A DNA stretch of 63,888 nt, filler included, from Dugesia japonica (Eukaryota): assembly GCA_001938525.1 (NCBI GenBank). It is 5 parts of 5 records of this genome, joined end to end, with 100 filler letters (N's around TTAATTAATTAA, not from the genome) between each part and the next. Parts side by side here need not be neighbours in the genome. Positions count along the whole stretch, not along the records: positions 1 to 9,314 come from MQRL01554210.1; 4 more parts are not named here. One strand, given 5' to 3'. Both the position numbers and the translations under genes were made by a program. Shown one piece after another: positions 1,071-63,888 of the stretch; position 1 is the first letter of the stretch, and each line of letters opens with the position of its first letter. The notes beneath the pieces are model-generated. The model was not told the origin of the DNA and did no database searches. It saw only the letters and a program-made list of their open reading frames with translations.

Positions 1071-1764
1071 TAAAATAATGAAATATTAATTGATTAATAA
1101 ACATTTTGTAAAAATAATTCTAATAATCAATAATAATAATAACCCAATTTGTTTAATGATATAATAAAAATGTTAATAATTTTCCAATTTTGTGCAGAAA
1201 GTTTAAAGATTTTTTTGGAAAGATGGTGTGTGAAGTACCAAATATCTTTTCTCGTGATCAAGAGATTAATGTTCAAACTGGTCTTCCCAGATACTAACAT
1301 TAGTTGCGCCTGATAATATTAATCTTATTTGTAAGATCCAAATGCTTATTATTCGGAATATTACAGTGGATATCATATGGTTATTATAAGACAACTCATT
1401 TTATCTAATTTTATTTCTTCCGTTTCAGCTTATCCAATTTATTAAAAAAATAACTATAGCAACACTAATTGTGTTTTTAAACAAGTTAAATTCCTGTTTT
1501 AATTTGGTGATCGTTTCTTAAAATCTTTTAAAATCTATTTAAAGTCATTTGACTTTTAATTCAGATTTTAAAATAAATTTTCAATTTATTTATTAAAACT
1601 TAATTTCAAAATTTAAAATAATTACTTNNNNNNNNNNNNNNNNNNNNNNNNNNNNNNNNNNNNNNNNNNNNNNNNNNTAATTTTTCTTTTCAATTTAAAT
1701 CTTTTTCAAAAAAGATTTCAAAAAAACGATCAACAACCACACAAAAAACTCGCTTCAAAACAAA

Positions 1765-1924
1765 CTCAGATTCCCATTTTTAAGAAATTTTTTGATCTCC
1801 TCTATGTTTGTTTCGAGAATTTTTCCGTTTGTATCTTCAAGGATGTACAGTCTGTCGTGCACCTGTCAATTGATCTTATAAGAACCGTCAAAACGTCTTG
1901 TTTTTTGTTTCAACTTTCACTAAA
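1765..1924 (-). pseudogene. Gypsy integrase C-terminal fragment (distal half of the interrupted target)
   Basis: Minus strand LVKVETK..RFDGSYK..VHDRLYILEDTNGK; clearly homologous at DNA level to 31562-31732. Confidence 0.8.
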
Positions 1925-3010
1925 AGTAGATAGATAGTGGCACACGGGCACAATTTATTTTGGGCACCATTTTATAAATCACCCCCTTCCCCCGGGGGCT
2001 CGGAAACACACAATGATTGAAGTGCGTTTTCCTAGACATGATTTTTGTGCTCGTTTTTTTTCTAATAATTTTGGGATCAAAAATTTTTTGATCAAATCAA
2101 ATTTTTTGATAGAATCAAATTTTTTGATCGGATCAGTTTTTTGTCCTGAAAGTATGTGTGTGTATTTTTAAATTTTAAATTTTGTGTGTGTTTGAGTTGA
2201 TAAGGTGGTTTATAAAAAGTAGGTCAAGTTGAGTTTGTGTGTGTGGTTAAGTGTATGTGTAAGGCTGGAAAAAACGAGGATGAGAAGCTGGAAATCTTCG
2301 AGATTTATTCTTTTGTGGTTTTGAAGATTTGGTTGTGGTTGGACAAAAATTTGGTCAATATATTGTCTTAAGGACTTATGAGTTTGGATGGATGGTTTGT
2401 CCTACAAAGGTAGTGGCACACGGGCACGGTCGTATGAGTTATTGTGGATAATTTTTATGGAAGCTGTAGGTTTGTATGTGGTTGATGGAATTTGTTGGTT
2501 AATGGTTTGTTGGATAGATAATGTTATAAGAAATATGTTGGTTCTCGAATGTGCTTTGATTTTTTATTTTAAGGGCTACTATTTGATTGGCTTATTTTGA
2601 AGGTAGTATAAGTGTGTTAAAATTTTTTGGTGAGGTGGAGGTTGGTATGTGTGGATAGAGAAATTATTATCGGATTTTATAAGATTTATTTGAAATTTTT
2701 CTGTCTTGTGGTTATGACGTCATAATTTTTTGAAATCCTTATTTTGCTAAAAAATGCTGTATTATGCTTAAATTAATGAATTTAATGAAATTAATGTTAT
2801 TTTAATGTATTTGATGTAATTTTGGTTATTTTTTCAGTATTTTGAACAGGGAAGGGTTGTTTTTTATTTTTTCAAACATGGAAGAGGGGAGTCTTGATAT
2901 TTTTGAAAATTATTTTTGGCAGGAAATCTAAAAAATCATTTTTGGCAGGAAATCTAAAAATGATTTTTTGCGAGAAATTCAAAAAAAATATTTTTTGGAG
3001 GGAAAATAAA
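1925..3010 (+). repeat. Left terminal inverted repeat of the mini-Polinton
   Basis: Reverse complement of ~7740-8675; inner end has TTTTTGGCAGGAAATCTAAAAA-type short repeats. Confidence 0.92.
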
Positions 3011-3535
3011 AAGTATCATTAGCTATGCAATATCTAATAAAAAACATTGGTTGAGAACATTTCTGAGAACAAAATGATAAAAACGTAGGATTTTTTTCAT
3101 AAAAGTCATAAATTCATAGAACCTTTCAAGACATTTATACCTAATAAGATTATACAACAAACTTATAAGAAAATATTTTCATGATTGTATAGAGTTTATG
3201 AGTATATTATTTGCATAGTTACTTTGTATTATTTACATAGCAACAATGTACTTTAAAGATTATGAGTATATTATTTATATATTAACCGTGAAATAAGATG
3301 TCACCATGCAAAATGGATGCGTGCGTCATGTTCATGAGTAATTTAGATAACAAATCATATCATTTTAAACAAATTACATTCAATCATATTAATTAATAAT
3401 AACCATTTATTTCTTTTAAAACATTTAATGATCAATAAAAACTAACAAATAACGAGTATGTTTGTATTGCAGCAAGTATATAAACAGTTACTTTTGTAAA
3501 ATAAGTCGCATTTACATTTTAAAGTTGAAAACAAA

Positions 3536-3818
3536 ATGAACCAAATCGAAAGGGTAATTAAACAAATTACAGATGCAATTATCAGTGTATCAGTTGAGGA
3601 AATGAATGAAGGGGAAAGACAAATTAAAAAAATTGGCAGATGAAATTCATTTCATAAGCAGGATAGTGGCCCTATTGAGAAAACATGAGTCTGTTGAACT
3701 CATTGTCCGTTTAATATTCATGGAGGAAATTAAAGAAGAATTAAAGAGACATAAGAGAAATAAACTTATTGCTGGTATTTTATTGACATCTGTTGTGATA
3801 TTTTATTTATTTGGTTGA
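3536..3818 (+). pseudogene. Polinton accessory gene: small helical protein with C-terminal membrane anchor (one frameshift in an A7 run)
   Basis: TATATAAA ~3477, AAAATG at 3536, AATAAA ~3850; C-terminus KRHKRNK-LIAGILLTSVVIFYLFG. Confidence 0.55.
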
Positions 3819-4196
3819 AATTAATGTAATTATTATTATTTTCTTGTTTAATAAATAGATTTGAATAATAATTTTGTTTTTCTTTCACATTATGTATAAA
3901 AAAATCTTATAAATAAATAGTTGTTTTATTTAACTAAAATTGGTTTATAAGTGCACTATTTACACAGTTACCATATATTATAGGGTTTTTATTTACATAA
4001 TAACTATGTAATAATGTAAATGCATGCTATGTTCACGAATTTAAATAAATAAAAGTATTTTTGTTTCTTAGTATTATCAAAAAATGAAGACATTTTGATA
4101 ATAAAGCATATATTTTTTTAAAATACAAATACATGCTAATAAATATTTCATGTGTTATGTTGCTTCGTTTATTGTAAACTACTAAAGAAGGAATAA

Positions 4197-4346
4197 TTAG
4201 CCTAAAAACATCCTGGCAACTTCCAATCTACCATCCATATAAATTGGATTTTGAAGCTCAGCAATGGAATTACTAGCAATATTATTTGGATGAACTAGTG
4301 GACTACTATTACTCGGTAAATTAGTATAGAAATTATTTGATTTCAT
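4197..4346 (-). pseudogene. Polinton minor capsid (penton/PX) N-terminal fragment
   Basis: MKSNNFYTNLPSNSSPLVHPNNIASNSIAELQNPIYMDGRLEVA matches the FYxTLPSNSS..P.N..S...L..PI.L.G.WEV N-terminus; truncated. Confidence 0.8.
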
Positions 4347-4369
4347 CTGAATTTTTGTCTTGTTATTTT

Positions 4370-4810
4370 ATTTGTGTTGCTACTAATCAAATTGGTTTTT
4401 TCATTTTGCATACTATTGTTTATTTTTTTAGGTTCCCTTTGATTAAAATGGAACAGCTCTTGTAAATCTAATGAATACAACGATAAAAGACAAAAATATA
4501 CTTNTAAAATTTATTATTCGTTTCAATTAGATACATTTACCTTAAATCATCAATACCATAGACTTTATATGGTCTTGTTGAAAATCTTTTCGACATTGGC
4601 TTGTTCAGACTGTACAGTAGATGGCCATATAACACCTTTTTTGTCTGTCTTATCAATTTTGGGCTGTTTTCATCAATTTTTCTATGCTTCAAAAACTTGC
4701 CAAGTTTTTTGAATCCGTCTATATTGTCTTCATTTTTGTCTCCATTACAACAATTTTATGCAAATTTCAAGTCAAAATTAGGTAATGATTGCAATCTACT
4801 CATTGTTCAT
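4370..4810 (-). pseudogene. Polinton retroviral-like integrase N-terminal remnant
   Basis: YSLNKPMSKRFSTRPYKVYGIDDL and frameshifted YILSFIVVFIRFTRAVP resemble YTLHKP.R.RF.R..V.GIDD.WQ.DL and YILTVIDVFSK.AWAVP; the rest is deleted. Confidence 0.7.
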
Positions 4811-4844
4811 TTGAGTTAGGGTATTGTTATATTTCAACCATTGT

Positions 4845-5168
4845 TTATTTGAAATGAGTTAAGCCTAATGCAGCTAATGCAATTAGTAGCAATGCTGATA
4901 TAAAAGTACNACCTTGATTGTTCATTACTCGTCTCATTGACTTTCTATTTTTTGTGTTTACAAGAGTTAATAAAGTTTTTTTATGTTTCTTCAATGTTTT
5001 CGTTTTGGCTGCACTTAAATCTACATTACCACGAACACTATTTATAATAATTTCAAGTAACTCATCTATAACATACGGTGGGAATGATTGTAATATTCTC
5101 ATTCTAAAAGGTTTTGATGATTTAATCAAAGCTGTAAAAAACGGAATGCTTCTTTGTAATTTCATCAT
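4845..5168 (-). CDS. Conserved small Polinton protein with QxGG-like site and hydrophobic C-terminus
   Basis: EIIINSVRGNVDLS..K..LKKHKKTL...NQGXTFISALL resembles the small Polinton ORF usually adjacent to the ATPase. Confidence 0.7.
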   Translation of the reverse strand: MMKLQRSIPFFTALIKSSKPFRMRILQSFPPYVIDELLEIIINSVRGNVDLSAAKTKTLKKHKKTLLTLVNTKNRKSMRRVMNNQGXTFISALLLIALAALGLTHFK

Positions 5169-5201
5169 TATTTATTAAAATAATACGTACCATTTATTTG
5201 T

Positions 5202-5423
5202 TTATAATCGTTTTTTATTCATCATTCGCAGCTTCTTTCGACTTCTTTTTGCAAGTTTTTTAAACATATTCCTTTTATTTACTTGTTGCTTTTTATTTGC
5301 GTGTTTTTTCTTATGCGATTGTTTCTTCTTTTTTCCATACTTTTTCTTCTCAAAAAATATTTTGTGACGCTTAACAACACCATCAGTTACTTGATCAACT
5401 ACAAATTTCTTTAATTTTGTCAT
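5202..5423 (-). CDS. Very basic 73-aa protein, candidate DNA-condensing core protein
   Basis: Open K/R-rich ORF, co-oriented between the ATPase and the 4845-5168 ORF; function inferred. Confidence 0.5.
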   Translation of the reverse strand: MTKLKKFVVDQVTDGVVKRHKIFFEKKKYGKKKKQSHKKKHANKKQQVNKRNMFKKLAKRSRKKLRMMNKKRL

Positions 5424-5444
5424 TTTTTGAAATATTATGAAAAA

Positions 5445-6072
5445 TTACCTATTTTGTTTATATACTGTGATACCATTTGGTTTACACATATCTGTTCTTA
5501 CTATATAATCATCTGGACATTGTTGTGTAAAGTCGAAAAATAGATATCCATGTGGTTTTTGTGGCATCTTAAAAGGATTCAATAAGACATTGTCTGTCAT
5601 TCGGATATGGTTGTCTTGCTAGAAAATCAACAACAGTTTGATCTCTAGTATATTTGAATAGAACCAAATATTGCACGTTTAAATTACGAGTTCTATGAAT
5701 ACTTCCCTGATGACATAGATTTTGTGTAATACATATCACAGTTACATTGTGATGTCTTGATATATTTGTGAATAAATTATTGAAATCGCTTTCGTTGTTC
5801 GCCTCCTGATACAGATCATCAACAACAATAACATCACCTCGTCTTAATCTTTTGCTCCAATTAGAATCCAAACCATTGATAATTTTCATTTTAATATTAG
5901 AAAATTCAGATTTAGTCAATCCATNCTCCTCATCTGCGCCCCTATGCCAGTACATGTTTTTAAATTTAGACTTGATTAACTTTGATTTTAATAATTGACA
6001 TACAAACAAAGTTTTCTCGCTACTACTAGGTCCTTTAATTTGATAGACTTCGTCATTTCTTAATCTTTACAT
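5445..6072 (-). pseudogene. Polinton A32/FtsK-like packaging ATPase
   Basis: Degenerate Walker A GPSSSEKT, Walker B VIVVDDL, SRHHNVTVICITQNL, RTRNLNVQYLVLFK, frameshifted C-terminus PHGYLFFDF..CPDDYIVRT. Confidence 0.9.
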
Positions 6073-6139
6073 CTTCTTTTCTTTAATTTATTCATAATTT
6101 ATTACATTGTTTAAATTTTTTTTAACGAATTAAATAAAT

Positions 6140-6826
6140 TTGTCCTTCAAAACCCAAATGTTCCTCATTAATTCATTAATTAGGATAACCAATATTGATG
6201 AAAGAGGTGAAGTGCCACAAGAAGTTACAAAGAAAATGAGCTTTCCTACAGGCAAACCATGTCAATTCCAAGTTAAAGTGACAAATATACAATTATATTC
6301 TTTAGATCAGGAAAATGTAGAATAATTGGTTGTTAGAAACCATCGGAACCATTGATTAATCATTGATTCATCAGAACCATGACATTAACCATGAAGAAAT
6401 AGAAAATATAATGGAAGCTAATGATAACGGAAAAGTCAATATTAATAAAGAAATAAATGAAGAAACAACTATTGAAGATGAAAAGGTGGAAGATACATGT
6501 AATGATAATGGTGACGATATTGGTTAATTTGAACTTGAAGATAAAAATTATGAAAATTATTATGGTAAAAGTTTTAGTTATTATTGTTTAATTTAATTAT
6601 TTTTTAGAATTACAGTTGGAGATATTACATGAAACCTTTCCAGAATTACTTCATGAATACATGCTGTTGATGATGATTGAATATTTTAAGCATTTATTGC
6701 AAACAAAAGCAATATATATGTTTCAAGTCATGGACAATTTCATCATAGAACTTCTTGCAGGTTTCACTTTCAAAGAAAACAAGAACCATTATGAAGTCGT
6801 AAAATAAAACAATTTGAAGATGACTG
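6140..6826 (+). pseudogene. Degraded acidic accessory gene with a candidate 43-nt intron (6565-6607)
   Basis: Removing GTAAAA...TTTTTAG joins ..YENYY-E-LQLEILHETFPELL in frame; AATAAA ~6853. Confidence 0.4.
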
Positions 6827-7429
6827 AAGAATATTATAAAAAATGTTTAATTAATAAATGTTTTATTGGATAATTGTTTTCTTTTTTTAAAGTAAATAAA
6901 TACAATTTTTTTATAATACCAAGTAAACAAAAAACAATATTTTAAATAAATTAATTTATGATAACTAATTTCATTAACATACATTTTAAGTGGAAAAATA
7001 CATCGCTAATTAGACTTTTTATGAAAAATTGCAACACTAATGAGACATTTTATTAAATATTTCATCACTAATATTGCATCACTAATATGTTTTTAAAGGA
7101 AATTACCTAGTTAATGTTTTTTTTATGAAAAAGTTCTATTTTTTATCATCTTGTAAAGAAAAGTTTTAATTTAAATTTTGTATCATGCAAATATTGCATA
7201 GAGTCCCCTCTTTGAACTTTTTTATTTGAATATTTTAATAAAAGTTATATTTTATTATGCAAATATCACAANNNNNNNNNNNNNNNNNNNNNNNNNNNNN
7301 NNNNNNNNNNNNNNNNNNNNNNNNNNNNNAGACTCTAAGTCTTTGAAGTTTTTTGATAGATGTATTTTCATAAATGCAACTCAGAAGCATTTCACCTGCA
7401 ACACTCAAACACTGAAAATTACTTGTCTA

Positions 7430-7660
7430 TGAATTTTAGACTGCCTCATACCTTGCAAAATAGTAAGCCTTTCCCATCCCGTGCTGAATATAGAGGCTCC
7501 CCATGTTAAATATAGTGACTCCCCATGCAAAATATCAAGACTACCCATACAATGCATACATTTCTTGTAATAATATCTTTAAAATATCAAGACTGTCATA
7601 TATCTTGTAATAATATCTTTAAAAATCTTATGCAAAATAAATAGACTCTGCATACAAAAT
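7430..7660. repeat. Subterminal imperfect tandem repeats (AGACT-CCCATGCAAAATAT type)
   Basis: Several degenerate units just inside the right TIR. Confidence 0.7.
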
Positions 7661-7739
7661 AAATTAATTTAATTTAATTTAATTTAATTATAATAAAAAA
7701 AATTCCTCCATTGAAATAAAAAGTTTTCAACCAAAATAT

Positions 7740-8675
7740 TTTTTTTTAATTTCCCACTAAAAAATTGTTTTTTTGAATTTCCTGCCAAAAGAATTTTTTT
7801 GAATTTCTCGGTAAAAGTATTTATTTTGAATTTCATGCCCCAAAAAGTTATTAAAAATATAAAGACTACCCTCTTCTCTGTTTGAAAAAATTAAAAAACA
7901 AGCCTTCCCTGTACAAAATAAAAGGAATAACCAAAATTAAATCAAATACATTAAAATAACATTACTTTCATTAAATTCATCAATTTGAGCAAAATACAGC
8001 ATTTTTTTAGAAAAATAAAGATTTCAAAAAATTATGACGTCATAACCACAAGACAGAAAAATTTCAAATAAGTCTTATAAAATCCGATAATTAATTCTCT
8101 TTCCACACATACCAACCTCCACATCACCAAAAAAATTTTTAACACACTTATACTACCTTCAAAATAAACCAATCAAATAGTAGCCCTTAAAATAAAAAAT
8201 CAAAGCACATTCGAGAACTAACATTTTCCTTACCTATCCAATAAACCAGCAACCAACAAATTCCATCAACCATATACAAACCTACAGCCTCCATAAAAAT
8301 TATCCACGATAACTCATACGACTGTGCTCATTTTTTCACAGTCTTAAACACACACATACACACAAAACCACACAAACAATCTCAACTTTACCTACTATTA
8401 AAAAACATCCTTAGCAACCCAAACACACACAAAATTTAAAATCAAAAAATACACACACACTTTCAGGATCAATAAACTAATCTGATCAAAAAAAATTTGA
8501 TCAGATCAAAGATTTTTTGATCCCAAAAATATTAGAATAAAAAACGAGCACAAAAGTCATGTCTAAAATAAAACAGTTCAAGCATAATGTGTTACCGAAG
8601 TCCCCCGGGGGGAGGGGGTGATTTAAAAAATTGTGCCAAAAATAAATTGTACCCATGTGCCACTATCAACCTACT
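7740..8675 (-). repeat. Right terminal inverted repeat of the mini-Polinton
   Basis: Reverse complement of 1925-3010, lacking about 145 bp present in the left TIR. Confidence 0.92.
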
Positions 8676-8960
8676 ACTAAAACCTTATCACCGACCTCAA
8701 ATTGTATTTTGGTTAGTTTCTTTTCATCATGTTCTTTGTATACTTTTGAGTATCTGTTTTGTACAATTTTTCTCGGCTTATTTTATTCCTAAATACGATT
8801 TCAGCAGGTCTTTTCAAGATGATCTTTTGTTTTTTAGCATTCAATATTAATTCCATCTCAAGCAACTCATCAGGGAAATCTGAGGTTTTTTTCTTTAAGT
8901 GTCCCATTTATAATATCTCGCATTGTCTTAAACTGCCTTTTGACGTCAAAATCTTTTGAA
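8676..8960 (-). pseudogene. Gypsy integrase fragment (proximal half of the interrupted target)
   Basis: LEMELILNA..RPAEIVFRNKISREK..FEVGDKVLV, homologous to 27167-27394 (PEIEFALKAT..IVFRKKVSREKW). Confidence 0.8.
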
Positions 8961-9314
8961 GTCTTTTTTTGTGTAAAAATTTTGTATTTTGCTCGAAAAG
9001 ATGAATTAATTTTAAATAATAGTATTTTTCTAAAAATGATGTATTTTTGAGTATTTTGAGTGGGAATGGTTGTTTTAAATAATTTTTTATGGGGAAATAG
9101 GGGAGTCTTGTTTTTTTTGTTAGCGGGAAATTTGAAAAAAAATTTTTGGAGAGAAATTTAAAATATTTTTTGCCGATAAATTTAAAAATTTATTTTTAAG
9201 AGGGAAATTTTTGTTGCGGGGAAAACCCGTTATAAAAGGAAATCAGGCCGAAAAGCCTGAATCAACAGAAAAGAACAACAGAACCATCATATTTACCAAT
9301 AATAAAGGTGTTGG

Positions 9315-47480: not shown

Positions 47481-47859
47481 AGATTTTTTAAAAACATTTG
47501 GAATTACAACAACAACAAATTTTGATCTTAATTCCATTGTAGACTTTTTAAAAATTCCATTAGAAATTTATATGAAAAATGAGTTGCCTGATAAATTTGA
47601 AAATAATATGAATTATATTTTTAATTATCAAAATACAAATCAAAAAGGAGGTCATTGGGTCGCTTTGAAAAATAAACATTATTTTGCTTCTTTTGGCTTA
47701 AATCCTTTTCATGAAGATCTTGAGAAACATGTAATAAAGTTTAATGAAAAACAAGTTCAACCTTATGAAACAAAAATTTGTGGTGTACTTTATATTTATT
47801 TTCTTTATAGTTTTCCTGAAAAATCTTTTAATGAAATTATTTCTGAAATAAATGAATGA
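47458..47859 (+). CDS. Adenain-like cysteine protease (catalytic Asp appears mutated)
   Basis: GGHWVA, YFASFG, QVQ...ICG. Confidence 0.88.
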   Translation: MPHIGKVLDFLKTFGITTTTNFDLNSIVDFLKIPLEIYMKNELPDKFENNMNYIFNYQNTNQKGGHWVALKNKHYFASFGLNPFHEDLEKHVIKFNEKQVQPYETKICGVLYIYFLYSFPEKSFNEIISEINE

Positions 47860-49893: not shown

Positions 49894-52542
49894 TTAAAGA
49901 CAATCTAATCTATCCCATAAAAGATCTAATCTAAAATGCCAATCTTCACATCTTTCACACCAAAATTTATTTCCATGTGGCCAAGTTATAATTCCGTTTA
50001 ATTTTATCAAAGCTTCATCATTGTAAGCAGTCATTATTATTTTATTTTGAGAAGTTAATTCTATTTCGTGCCTATCTGATTATAAACTATAATTCACTCC
50101 AGAAATCACTTGTTGCGCATCTTCTAAAATTTTATCATAATCCATCATTTGTACATCATTAGTTTTTGATGCGCCCTTGTGTCTCTTGTAATACTCAATT
50201 AAATGATTTACTACATAATTAAAAGCATTACATTTTGCCCTTATAAAATCAGCATGTGTAATTTCTGCGTTTGGTTGTTCGTCTTTCATTTGAAAGAGTT
50301 CATTTCCAAACAATGTTGAAAACTTGTCTAAATTTTCTTGCCCGCTTATTTCCACGAAAAAGAAATCTGTGTCTGTGTAATGAATTTTATAATTTCCTGT
50401 TCCAATTAATGGTTGCATTTGAACATATACAAAATTATACATAATCTCTTTCGCATATATTCTAAAATAGCAAAACCAATCATTGGAAATTTATTATATT
50501 TTACATTGCTTTTTTGCATGTGCATTGCTGCTAAATATCTTGAAAATATTTTAAAATATCTAAATGATAATTTTGCAGATTCCCTTTGAAACTCTGTATT
50601 ATTTGTAAGAAATACTATAGACTGTCTTTTAAAAACATCTTCAAGACATTTTCCATAAAAGACATTATTTAAAAGCTTGAAAAATCAGATGCAAAATTCA
50701 TCTCCATTTCTTTTTGCTTCATTTCTCTTTTCAATGTTTAAAAGAATATATGGTTTTAACCATCGTGATGTTGGAACTTTCGCTTTATAATAAATTTTTT
50801 TCTACTTCATGCCTTGTTCTTAATATAAGTCTAAAGTACTTCCTTGAATAAAGTAAGTAAACTTATCAAATTGAGTAAGTACTAATTTTGTATTATACTT
50901 TGGAAATCTTTTATTAAAATTAGCTTGATATGGTGCTTCCATATTTTTTCGTATATTTAACCTCTCTGGACCTAGGTTTTTCGCGAATCTCGGGAGGATA
51001 CTCTAAATCCACCTCATACATAAAATTATAATCCTCCGTTGCTCTTTCATGTGTTAAATCTTTACATTCGATGTAATCACCTATTGGAAGAGGTTTTGTC
51101 ATACATGCCGCATATAAAGAATTTTGATCTAAATATTTTAAAAATGTTTTTTTGAAAAATTCTTCTGGAATTTCTTCTCCTCGTTCTAAACATTTTTTAA
51201 TTTCTTCTTTTTGTGCTTTTGTAAATTNCCTTTCTGCTATATTTTTATTAAATGGAAAAACTTGTCTTTCACCAGTTACTGCAGAAACTCCATCACGACT
51301 TGCTCGTTGATTTTTTAAACAATATTCATAACTTTTTTGTTTTGGATATCTTAGTTTAACGCGAGTAAATTTTATTCCTGCTATCCAAGTAAGTCCTGGA
51401 GTTGAGTAGCAAAAGCATGAATCAATCCCATAATATTCCATAGAAATTTCTCTAAGATTTTCCATGAAATCTGCAAGAATTAAAACATCAAGTTTTAAAT
51501 AATGAAGCATGTGTTCCCACATATTTTCTAATTTAAAAAATTCTTTTAAAAATTCCTTATATTCTTTAAAAGTTATTTTTTTCTGTCTTAAGGTAGTAAA
51601 GAAATCTTACATTGAGTGTATTTTATTACTTTTTAATAATTGCTCAACTTCTTCCACATTATCTCCTTTTAAATATTCATAAGGAAATGAAATCTTTTTT
51701 GCTTTTGAATTAAATGATTTTAAATGTGGGTATTTTCCATTTTTATTTAAAACTATGTCCATTTTTTCTTCTGATGTGCCTGGGCTACACATCCTGTAAG
51801 AATCTAAAAATCTAATTTTTTTAAATGAAAAAGAAATATATTCTTCATCAGTGTGTGGTATAATTTTTTTTGTATTATCCTGGTGTTTTTTATAAGTTCT
51901 CTAAAAAATAAATGATTGTCATAACCAGATGCGTTATGAAAATAAAATGGTATAAAGAAATGTTTCTTAATTTTTTTATATTTTTTATTACAATTTTCGT
52001 GAGCACCTCCCATAAATTCTCCACTGAAAAAGTTGTAAACTTCTTCTGGATTTTCACCAAGTGTTTTCTTACAGTAAAAACATTCATCATTTAAAATTCT
52101 TGGTTGTGGNTTAATAAAATTTGTTTCAAGAAGCTCTTCCACTTTTAAATTTTCCAAGTAATTTAAAAAATCATTTAACACATTTTCCCCTGTGAAAACA
52201 GTATATTCTGTTTTAATTAAATCCTCTTGATTACTTTTAAGATAAATACCGAATGCAATTGGTTTTTGTTTATTATCAATTGTGTTGGTGTATGCCTCAA
52301 AATCCGCATATATTGAAAATGGATTTTTTATCATAAAATTAAAATCAGAAAATTCATGAAATTCTTTTTTTTCAAATTTAATTTTTGCTGGTTTTTGATG
52401 AACACACTCTTCTTGATGTCTTTCAACTTTTTCTTGTGTGGAATATGCATTCATACAATTCATACACATGGATTTTTCGCTTCCGTGATAACTAATAAGT
52501 GTATTTAAATTTTTACACAGGACATAATGATTTTTATAACAA
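49894..52542 (-). pseudogene. Protein-primed family B DNA polymerase (5' truncated, frameshifted)
   Basis: YADFE, HNASGYDNHLF, YLKLDVLILAD, YLDQNSLYAACM, KLLNNVFYGK, YTDTD. Confidence 0.95.
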
Positions 52543-52714
52543 TTATTTTTGTTTAAATGAAGTAAAATTACTGATTTTCTTTGTTTAAATTAATCGAAAT
52601 TAATGATCATTTGTTTAAATTTAATGAAATTAATAATTTTCCAGTTTCTTAATGGAAATTAATTGAAAAGGTTATGTTTGTTTAAATTAAACAAAATTTT
52701 ATTGTATATGATTT

Positions 52715-62589: not shown

Positions 62590-63888
62590 AAAAATGAACT
62601 GGAATAATATTCAAATAATTGAATACCTAAATGAAGAGAACCTTGATGATTTAGATGGTCCACAAGTTGGTGGTTCTATAGACATATTTGTTATTGAAGT
62701 CAACATGTACAGATATCACCAGATCTTGAAATTAGATGTTTCAAGATTTAAGATGAGAAAGATTATTTTATCAGATACTTTGGTATAAAAACTACTTAAA
62801 ATAATTGAAGAAATAAAGGATGTAAAAATTTATTTTGGAATTTATGTTAAGTTGTATGTTAAGATCATGAAATAAAAACTTGTTATTTATCTAATAGTGC
62901 TGCAGTACTTATTGATTAGTTCTTCGAAGAGGGATTTAGGATATTGAATGAAAAGATCGTTGTAAGAAGCAAAATAAGTAGATTGTCAGACCGTAGTCAT
63001 ATCCCAACTCCAGAAAATCTAAAAGTGAAAAAACCTATTGTTAACATCAAAAATAGTGATAATAAATGTTACATATATAGTATTCTCTATATTCTTAAAC
63101 GAGACGTAGTAGTCAAAAAGAGCAGGAATCCTACAATACAATATAATGAGTTTATGTTAGAACTTGTATTCAGTAAAAGAGAAATACCCATGAAATTTGT
63201 AAATATTCCAAAATTTGAAAAACAAAACCCTTAATTGACTATCAACGTGCTATCATAGCAACAAAATGAAGATTATGAAAATGAGGTTGTCATGAAACAT
63301 CCTACTTTTGATATTCATAAACCTAGGGTTGAAGGTGGTAAGAAAATAAATTTATTATTATTTGAAGATGGGGTAAACTTCATTACACAGATGTAATGAA
63401 TTTTAATAGATTGATAAACAGAGATATTAAAAAGAATGGTGTTTAAATTCTTTTAATTTGTTGCGAAAATTGTCTTAGTGGATTTTGGGATAACGCGGCT
63501 TTGAAGACTCATGAACCAACTAGTGAAAAAATACAAACAAGAACCATTATTTATAAAATGCATTTTAAAAAAATTAATATTTACAGGCAGTCAATTTTTT
63601 CACTGGAATATCTCCTGCATACCAACAGCAAGCAAAAATGGCACACTTGGGAAAAGTAACTATAAAGTTCATTGATTCACATCGATTTATCAATACATCA
63701 TTTTACTCAGCTGTTAAAACTATCAGAACAACTCCATTTACAACAAAGAAGTTTAATGATTATAGAATCATAAAAGCAAAGAAAATTTTCACATATGACT
63801 TTGTTACATGCCTATCGGTGATGAAAAAGATCAAAAGTATGTCATCAATATAGACAGATGTCAATGAAGAATCGTATCTTAAGGCATT
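62590..63888 (+). pseudogene. Third, distinct pPolB relic (N-terminal and exonuclease region, internally deleted)
   Basis: IVNIKNSDNKCYIYSIL, IPKFEKQNP, INLLLF, CENCL, IKFIDSHRF, KKIFTYDF. Confidence 0.8.

Follow-up and report, generated by a model that had tools for sequence, protein, structure and literature searches.

The window analysed here is a stretch of 63,888 nucleotides from the Dugesia japonica assembly GCA_001938525.1. It contains an element of ~6.75 kb which belongs by descent to the Polintons (or Mavericks). This element is probably an old and real insertion of a family which lacks pPolB, has a dead integrase, keeps its capsid genes and likely spread with the help of other elements; the copy in the window likely lost its capsid and TBP blocks in place, after insertion. 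An initial annotation, made from the sequence alone, had described the element as a mini-Polinton and left two options, a satellite-like derivative mobilised in trans or a full element which had shrunk in place. Each option holds in part: decay in situ fits the 6.75-kb copy and mobilisation in trans fits its parent family, but the element from which the copy shrank was already incomplete.

The parent family of ~11.4 kb

The source assembly is a fragmented short-read draft (854 Mb in 648,594 contigs), in which the element lies on contig C554210. The layout of the parent family was obtained from overlapping contigs. It consists of an arm, a spacer called region A, a truncated protease, the major capsid protein gene (MCP), a core-like open reading frame (ORF), the penton, a broken integrase, a PZ-like ORF, a basic ORF, the ATPase, a TBP-like gene, small ORFs and a second arm. 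This layout measures ~11.4 kb and is devoid of pPolB, and none was found within positions 1925–8675 of the 6.75-kb copy either. Region A occupies the place which is that of the protease end, the spacer and pPolB in complete relatives. The family has a virion module with MCP, penton and ATPase, the protease being truncated. In place of a complete retroviral-type integrase, it carries a gene with a common ~630-bp deletion and common stops. In the family ORF pieces scanned, Pfam gave no match to a helicase or another polymerase which could replace pPolB; weak homology may be masked in the small ORFs which are broken.

The integrase break is spanned by 39 of 39 non-self top matches, with a query which was biased towards the break. 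The pattern of the junction occurs at 54 places in the assembly and a control pattern at none. None of the 31 loci with a full integrase matches the junction pattern, and the 17 which could be measured all hold 624–625 more bases between the break points. The fetched loci give 45 distinct integrase-junction sequences and 32 distinct protease/region-A sequences; the integrase junction and the protease/spacer boundary are found together on 10 loci, which correspond to 8 contigs. When MCP alone was used as the query, 14 of 30 loci led into region A, four into a related spacer and one into pPolB, the other 11 being uninformative. The copies of the family carry differing flanks and target-site duplications (TSDs), few contigs holding both the integrase junction and a terminus.

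Because one integrase deletion recurs at at least 54 places with differing flanks and TSDs, pPolB being already absent, the parent family appears to have been mobilised in trans. It is established knowledge that a family without pPolB or integrase must receive both enzymes in trans. Judging from these sequences, the family is likely a helper-dependent, capsid-retaining Polinton lineage, which has decayed in the copies seen. The initial annotation had taken a capsid-less mini-Polinton as the mobilised unit; the mobilised family measures ~11.4 kb instead and retains the major capsid gene.

Complete-type elements which have the ends of the family are present in the same genome (C613622, C595985 and C598334); all of them are decayed, and several complete-type contigs are covered over part of their length only. 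On C613622 (loci L467, L462 and L468), the order is ATPase, full integrase, penton, core-like ORF, MCP, protease, spacer, pPolB and arm, with 75–87% identity. Such elements would have acted as helpers. In intact relatives from metagenomes, these genes are accompanied by an integrase of 348–389 amino acids, a protease and pPolB. Some of these relatives (L306, L307 and L308) have two tandem penton-like genes, and a small ORF which starts with D-x-Q/E-G-F/Y between the protease and pPolB; from this motif, we take the ORF to be DEDD exonuclease-like.

The pPolB genes which stand beside family genes in L013/L062 and L014/L061 were considered as parts of the family and rejected, since they belong to other subfamilies or to separate elements. 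Four loci (L383, L385, L394 and L405) represent a sister type which retains full-length protease homology. In the last three of them, the spacer joins the sub-terminal repeats directly, without pPolB; this type may show the same reduction at an earlier point.

Insertion and probable in-place decay of the 6.75-kb copy

The element (AGTAG...CTACT, 1925–8675) is bracketed by ACTAAA on both sides. Long terminal inverted repeats (TIRs) with AG...CT ends and a 6-bp TSD, as expected for a Polinton, are both present in the 6.75-kb copy. The alignment of 1925–3012 with 7743–8675 gives two blocks, with 76–79% and 87% identity. With 76–87% identity, the arms are therefore old, not fresh. The AGTAG terminus is a feature of the family: among 44 distinct strings of terminus and flank in the fetched loci, 34 begin with AGTAG, and the terminus is common to many copies with differing flanks (40 scored of 3,033 candidates). 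Matches to Integrase_H2C2 and RT_RNaseH identify the host flank as the integrase end of a Ty3/Gypsy-type retrotransposon. In 21 uninterrupted paralogues of this flanking repeat, sequence like the left flank runs into sequence like the right flank and the target is present once (it is exactly ACTAAA in 6 of 21). The insertion and its TSD are therefore real, and the termini, the exact TSD and the ~1-kb TIRs which the initial annotation had reported are all borne out by the alignment and the empty sites. Beyond the retrotransposon piece of the right flank, positions 8938–9209 are 67–69% like the inner arm repeats of the element, which indicates a related end next door.

Two large blocks of the family are missing from this copy. 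At breakpoint 4184, 23 of 24 other rows, and at 4209, 17 of 18, run on into a block of ~2.86 kb, which contains the protease start, MCP, the core-like ORF and most of the penton. Similarly, 21 of 21 other rows at 6349 and 28 of 28 at 6379 run on into a block of ~1.8 kb, which contains the remainder of the TBP-like gene and small ORFs. The join 4208/4209 has a single match in the genome (pattern search with up to 3 mismatches), and among 40 contigs scored the join 6349/6379 is spanned by that of the window alone. No extended homology exists at either join. This junction check speaks against the satellite option for the 6.75-kb unit, both joins being single-copy.

Related pieces retain what the copy has lost. 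L032 and L218 have the same flank and TSD as the element in the window, with 90–91% identity; L218 retains the block upstream of 6379 and carries a deletion of its own. L094, which is 94% identical (the median for other copies is 79%), shares a first deletion of ~0.34 kb and continues into MCP, as does a contig of the public run X6. Since both share the first deletion yet keep MCP, the loss of the capsid gene postdates the separation from a sister copy. Because the two junctions are single-copy and sister pieces retain the lost DNA, the 6.75-kb form seems to have shrunk in place, and it is likely an ordinary decayed insertion.

The initial annotation had also considered that missing genes might lie in a scaffold gap of the right arm (7272–7329). 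In 13 other loci, the flanks of this gap are separated by −1 to 57 bp, and in one further locus by 182 bp (5 records of the same contig aside); the gap is therefore too small to contain genes.

Table 1. Features of the 6.75-kb element and its flanks, in positions of the window.
Feature	Positions	Strand	Remarks
Left flank, 3' end of Ty3/Gypsy-type retrotransposon	1678..1918	-	interrupted by the element
Left TSD, ACTAAA	1919..1924	+	single copy at empty sites
Left TIR, AGTAG terminus	1925..3012	+	inner part shortened in this copy
Region A, family-specific spacer	3005..4104	.	small broken ORF near 3560-3818 (+)
Adenain-like protease scrap	4105..4184	-	~26 codons; gene already truncated in the family
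MCP relic	4185..4208	-	24 bp, between two successive deletions
Penton (minor capsid) gene, 5' end	4209..4367	-	residues 2-52
Integrase remnant	4368..4800	-	family-wide ~630-bp internal deletion at 4438-4444; stops common to other copies
Conserved small ORF (PZ-like)	4845..5171	-	40-51% identical to ORFs of intact relatives
Short basic ORF	5202..5444	-	Lys/Arg-rich
A32-like packaging ATPase	5445..6066	-	broken in this copy
TBP-like gene, 5' part	6170..6349	+	cut at 6349
Filler of local repeats	6350..6378	.	29 bp, at the private ~1.8-kb deletion
Region D	6379..6990	+	small broken ORFs, common to many copies
Right arm	6990..8675	+	sub-terminal repeats, of which other copies have a mirror image at their left end; TIR 7743-8675, CTACT end
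Scaffold gap inside right arm	7272-7329		
Right TSD, ACTAAA	8676..8681	+	single copy at empty sites
Right flank, C-terminal part of the integrase of this Ty3/Gypsy-type retrotransposon	8682..8940	-	

The features of the copy are collected in Table 1. Of the virion module, only the broken ATPase and scraps remain. The initial annotation was right to state that pPolB, the major capsid gene and the protease are missing, apart from the MCP relic and the protease scrap, and that the integrase and the penton are truncated. Its description of the ends, the TSD and the lost genes stands, but its junction at ~4370 is actually the integrase break at 4438–4444, and it overlooked both the second large break (6349/6379) and the shortening of the inner left arm, which measures 40 bp here and 279–1198 bp at other loci. 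Positions 4185–4208 were also considered as repair filler, which was rejected since their sequence is that of MCP.

The gene identities rest on the intact metagenome relatives. The MCP of an intact homologue is predicted to adopt a double jelly-roll fold (pLDDT of 87), with iridovirus and PBCV-1 capsids as best matches (E 6e-16), and the predicted fold of the penton of intact homologues matches the mavirus penton (E 1.6e-8). These folds settled both identities, as sequence searches of the PDB gave nothing for the MCP piece or profile and one chance match for the penton profile. The integrase of the metagenome relatives has rve and chromo matches. The TBP-like gene matches Pfam TBP with an E-value of 8e-8 in one copy and 5e-18 in an intact relative; it belongs to the usual gene set of this Polinton clade (window 6170–6349; L015, L307), and is found also in metagenome relatives. 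The Pfam protease model PF00770 gave zero matches genome-wide, the controls being equally blank, and the protease was found via homologues instead. We presume that it is a protease from its His motif and its position; the labels PZ-like and core-like are likewise our assumption, from position and motifs. One RNA run contains 6 reads which fit partly and which carry no statement on expression.

Other derivatives have been found in the same genome. L040/L072 (931–2115) is an ends-only copy of 1,185 bp with a perfect AATCAG TSD, similar to a miniature inverted-repeat transposable element (MITE). L174 (199–7178) is a complete copy of 6,980 bp with the TSD CAGATC, which retains MCP and has lost the integrase, the ATPase and most of the penton. 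Elsewhere in the window, other Polinton families are represented by distant broken pPolB genes (22–37% amino acid identity to this clade) and by protease-like ORFs at 9416–12412, 13745–13930, 47611–47805, 50442–52571 and 62693–63572, and positions 18131–18324 are ~70% like the arm of the element. Genome-wide, many pPolB matches have no internal stop, with open frames of more than 1,000 codons, which indicates that the genome also harbours younger Polinton families. A weak F5/8 type C (discoidin-like) match at 693–1060 (E 0.01, below the cut-off) possibly corresponds to exons of a host gene.

Apparent selection on the capsid module and a proposed history of the family

Stops in the integrase remnant are common to 37 of 38 and 28 of 31 copies. 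The most-shared stops are found in 2 of 17 copies of MCP, 4 of 17 of the ATPase and 2 of 13 of the penton, none being common to at least 40% of the copies. The ratio of nonsynonymous to synonymous divergence (dN/dS) was calculated pairwise on junction-bearing copies, after removal of copies with fewer than 20 aligned codons, near-identical duplicates (>97%) and stop codons. Plain dN/dS was judged open to mutation bias, and was therefore redone with an empirical mutation spectrum; this weighted version additionally drops codons which differ at more than one site. It gives 0.64 [0.53–0.79] for MCP (28 copies), 0.52 [0.40–0.67] for the ATPase (20 copies) and 0.58 [0.41–0.87] for the C-terminal part of the penton (19 copies). 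The values are 0.69 [0.46–1.06] for the TBP-like gene (13 copies), 0.89 [0.65–1.35] for the PZ-like ORF (35 copies) and 1.32 [0.97–1.77] for the integrase (42 copies). Compared with integrase-intact relatives, the excess dN on the family stem is +0.101 [0.057–0.155] for the integrase, −0.017 for the ATPase, −0.015 for the core-like ORF and +0.003 for MCP. It is therefore likely that the integrase remnant evolves neutrally, and that MCP, penton and ATPase were under purifying selection after the death of the integrase.

The following history may be proposed. The ~11.4-kb type, which is itself observed, would have arisen from a complete Polinton by loss of pPolB, truncation of the protease and one deletion in the integrase. 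The pPolB of a helper would have copied its linear DNA from the common ends, and the integrase of a helper would have inserted this DNA, producing the 6-bp TSDs. The measured ratios suggest, with the caveats given below, that, for some time after the integrase died, the capsid module of the lineage likely remained in use. Comparison with the sister pieces shows three subsequent internal losses in the 6.75-kb copy, of ~0.34 kb, ~2.5 kb and ~1.8 kb, and the templated filler at 6350–6378 points to repair by end joining.

Several observations weigh against this history. The assembly is fragmented, the searches score the best 40–150 candidates, and haplotype duplicates can raise the counts. The join 4208/4209 is bridged by no contig of four public runs and rests on the source assembly, and L094, which has no flank, is assumed to lie at the same site. 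The stem test of MCP relies on 3 helper-type copies, and the stem excess dN of the penton and the PZ-like ORF is +0.03 to +0.05, with higher dS. The ratio of observed to expected synonymous divergence in ATPase, MCP and penton (0.98–1.19) exceeds the all-site divergence in the dead integrase (0.56–0.74). Simple within-family selection predicts equal values, so that exchange of sequence with other lineages may play a part; selection on the capsid genes could be mimicked by recombination with a helper which is not among the samples. L402 joins a family-like MCP (88%) to pPolB (85–89%), and L366 does likewise. Close complete-type parents therefore existed, and some "family" MCP copies may derive from them. 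Finally, the common ATPase stop (4 of 17) and common frame switches in MCP (6 of 21) and the PZ-like ORF (11 of 32) suggest that some sub-lineages multiplied after their ATPase, MCP or PZ-like genes broke.

The family might thus be an ordinary defective derivative, a passive passenger whose apparent capsid selection results from recombination with a closer, unsampled helper. The excess of synonymous divergence unmatched in the dead integrase and the chimeric loci L402 and L366 agree with this idea, as does MCP, whose dS is 0.21 between the family and close protease-intact sisters and 0.18 within the family. We consider it unlikely, however, because both lesions flank the capsid block on the same molecules (the 8 contigs above), so that replacement needs double exchanges, because dS within the family is 0.15–0.19 for ATPase, penton and core-like ORF, against 0.37–0.70 to the sampled helpers, and because widely shared stops are absent from MCP, ATPase and penton. 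Another reading starts from loci at which pPolB stands alone between two sub-terminal arms, without capsid genes (L359, L361, L367 and L371; also L442–L444, L446, L449, L458 and L459). A junction between the spacer and an MCP relic of ~115 bp is shared by 7 of 30 loci (5 by a strict probe), so that the pPolB-only elements make up a further deletion family which has multiplied. Capsid-only and pPolB-only types share their ends, are of similar age (82–91% between copies) and complement each other in polymerase and capsid; they could have been partners in a split genome, each acting as a segment, with integrase from complete elements. Purifying selection on pPolB (dN/dS of 0.48 [0.44–0.53] for 58 copies and 0.41 [0.27–0.60] for 4 junction-bearing copies) is in line with such a partnership. 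However, neither type has a working integrase, so that complete elements, which the genome does contain, were required in any case and could have provided all functions, and the pPolB-only elements show several different junctions. We therefore hold this partnership to be quite improbable. There is a correspondingly small chance that a Polinton split into a multipartite system in an animal genome, with a capsid segment and a pPolB segment, both under purifying selection and multiplying through mutual complementation with integrase from dwindling complete elements, and that the element in the window is a fossil of the capsid segment.

Two further explanations concern the 6.75-kb copy itself. 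The fragmented assembly, the unbridged join 4208/4209 and the scaffold gap inside the element would be compatible with private joins which are chimeras of repeat copies. This is very improbable, since the joins lack extended homology, the second contains 29 bp of local-repeat filler, the first small deletion recurs in an independent run, and the TSD matches on both sides, with sister ends at the same site. It is scarcely believable that the capsid-less form was mobilised as a mini-Polinton family in its own right: its perfect TSD and two ends, and the existence of other short TSD-flanked forms, fit this idea, but each of the large junctions occurs once, the lost DNA persists in sister pieces and the arms are only 76–87% alike. 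An old insertion of a helper-spread, capsid-keeping family which decayed in place is the reading that we retain.

Comparison with known systems

Repbase contains non-autonomous Polinton entries. Non-autonomous TIR derivatives (MITE-like or internally deleted) resemble the parent family in their cis-acting ends, in deletion junctions which are common across sites and in their need for helper enzymes. The family differs from them in that it measures ~11.4 kb, keeps a virion module and shows purifying selection after the loss of replication and integration genes. In defective-interfering genomes and multipartite viruses, deletion derivatives keep the replication ends and rely on complementation, and complementary types co-occur; in contrast, the two derived types found here are germline-fixed insertions, and complementation between them is putative.

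Polintons are defined by pPolB and integrase in the section of PMC5499653 available. The complete type found here has the features given for Polintons/Mavericks in parts of PMC8097293, PMC6431247 and PMC5499653, i.e. the same AG...CT ends, long TIRs, 6-bp TSD, double-jelly-roll MCP, penton, A32-like ATPase, protease, retroviral-type integrase and pPolB. The parent family, unlike the elements described in these parts, has no pPolB and a dead integrase, yet has multiplied, and it carries a TBP-like gene. Most genomic Maverick copies are decayed according to a portion of PMC8097293, and trans mobilisation of non-autonomous elements is stated in general terms in an extract of PMC6431247. Polinton-like viruses (PLVs) and Tlr1 also have a capsid module with ATPase and no pPolB, PLVs being devoid of integrase and protease as well, and Tlr1 has at times been termed a non-autonomous Polinton (PMC5499653 and PMC11161782, in part). 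As far as these extracts go, however, PLVs and Tlr1 substitute a helicase or another replication protein for pPolB, none of which was found in the scanned pieces of the parent family, and the parent family arose by deletion from co-resident complete Polintons. In C. elegans, pPolB and TIRs without integrase have been noted as remnants (bioRxiv 10.1101/2024.01.15.575659, in part), and the available part of an anole study reports that no non-autonomous Polintons were seen (PMC3014272); bioRxiv 10.1101/2022.07.12.499685 contributes nothing further on this point. No description of a pPolB-less, capsid-retaining non-autonomous Polinton family was found in titles and abstract openings, Repbase, subscription journals and bioRxiv supplements being outside this coverage.

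Whether animal Polintons move as particles is presented as an open question in the accessible part of PMC8097293, where the principal case for it is that capsid genes evolve under purifying selection. If the history proposed here is true, making particles was advantageous even to a helper-dependent genome, and the family is a natural experiment on trans-complementation in Polintons. Together with its pPolB-only sisters, which share its ends, it is a candidate record of segmented genomes arising from deletion derivatives. What is new here is likely a Polinton family without polymerase and with a dead integrase, which retains its capsid genes and likely spread by means of helpers. In its mode, it resembles non-autonomous TIR derivatives or defective viral genomes; its descent makes it a Polinton, but one which fails both of the gene tests that define Polintons.

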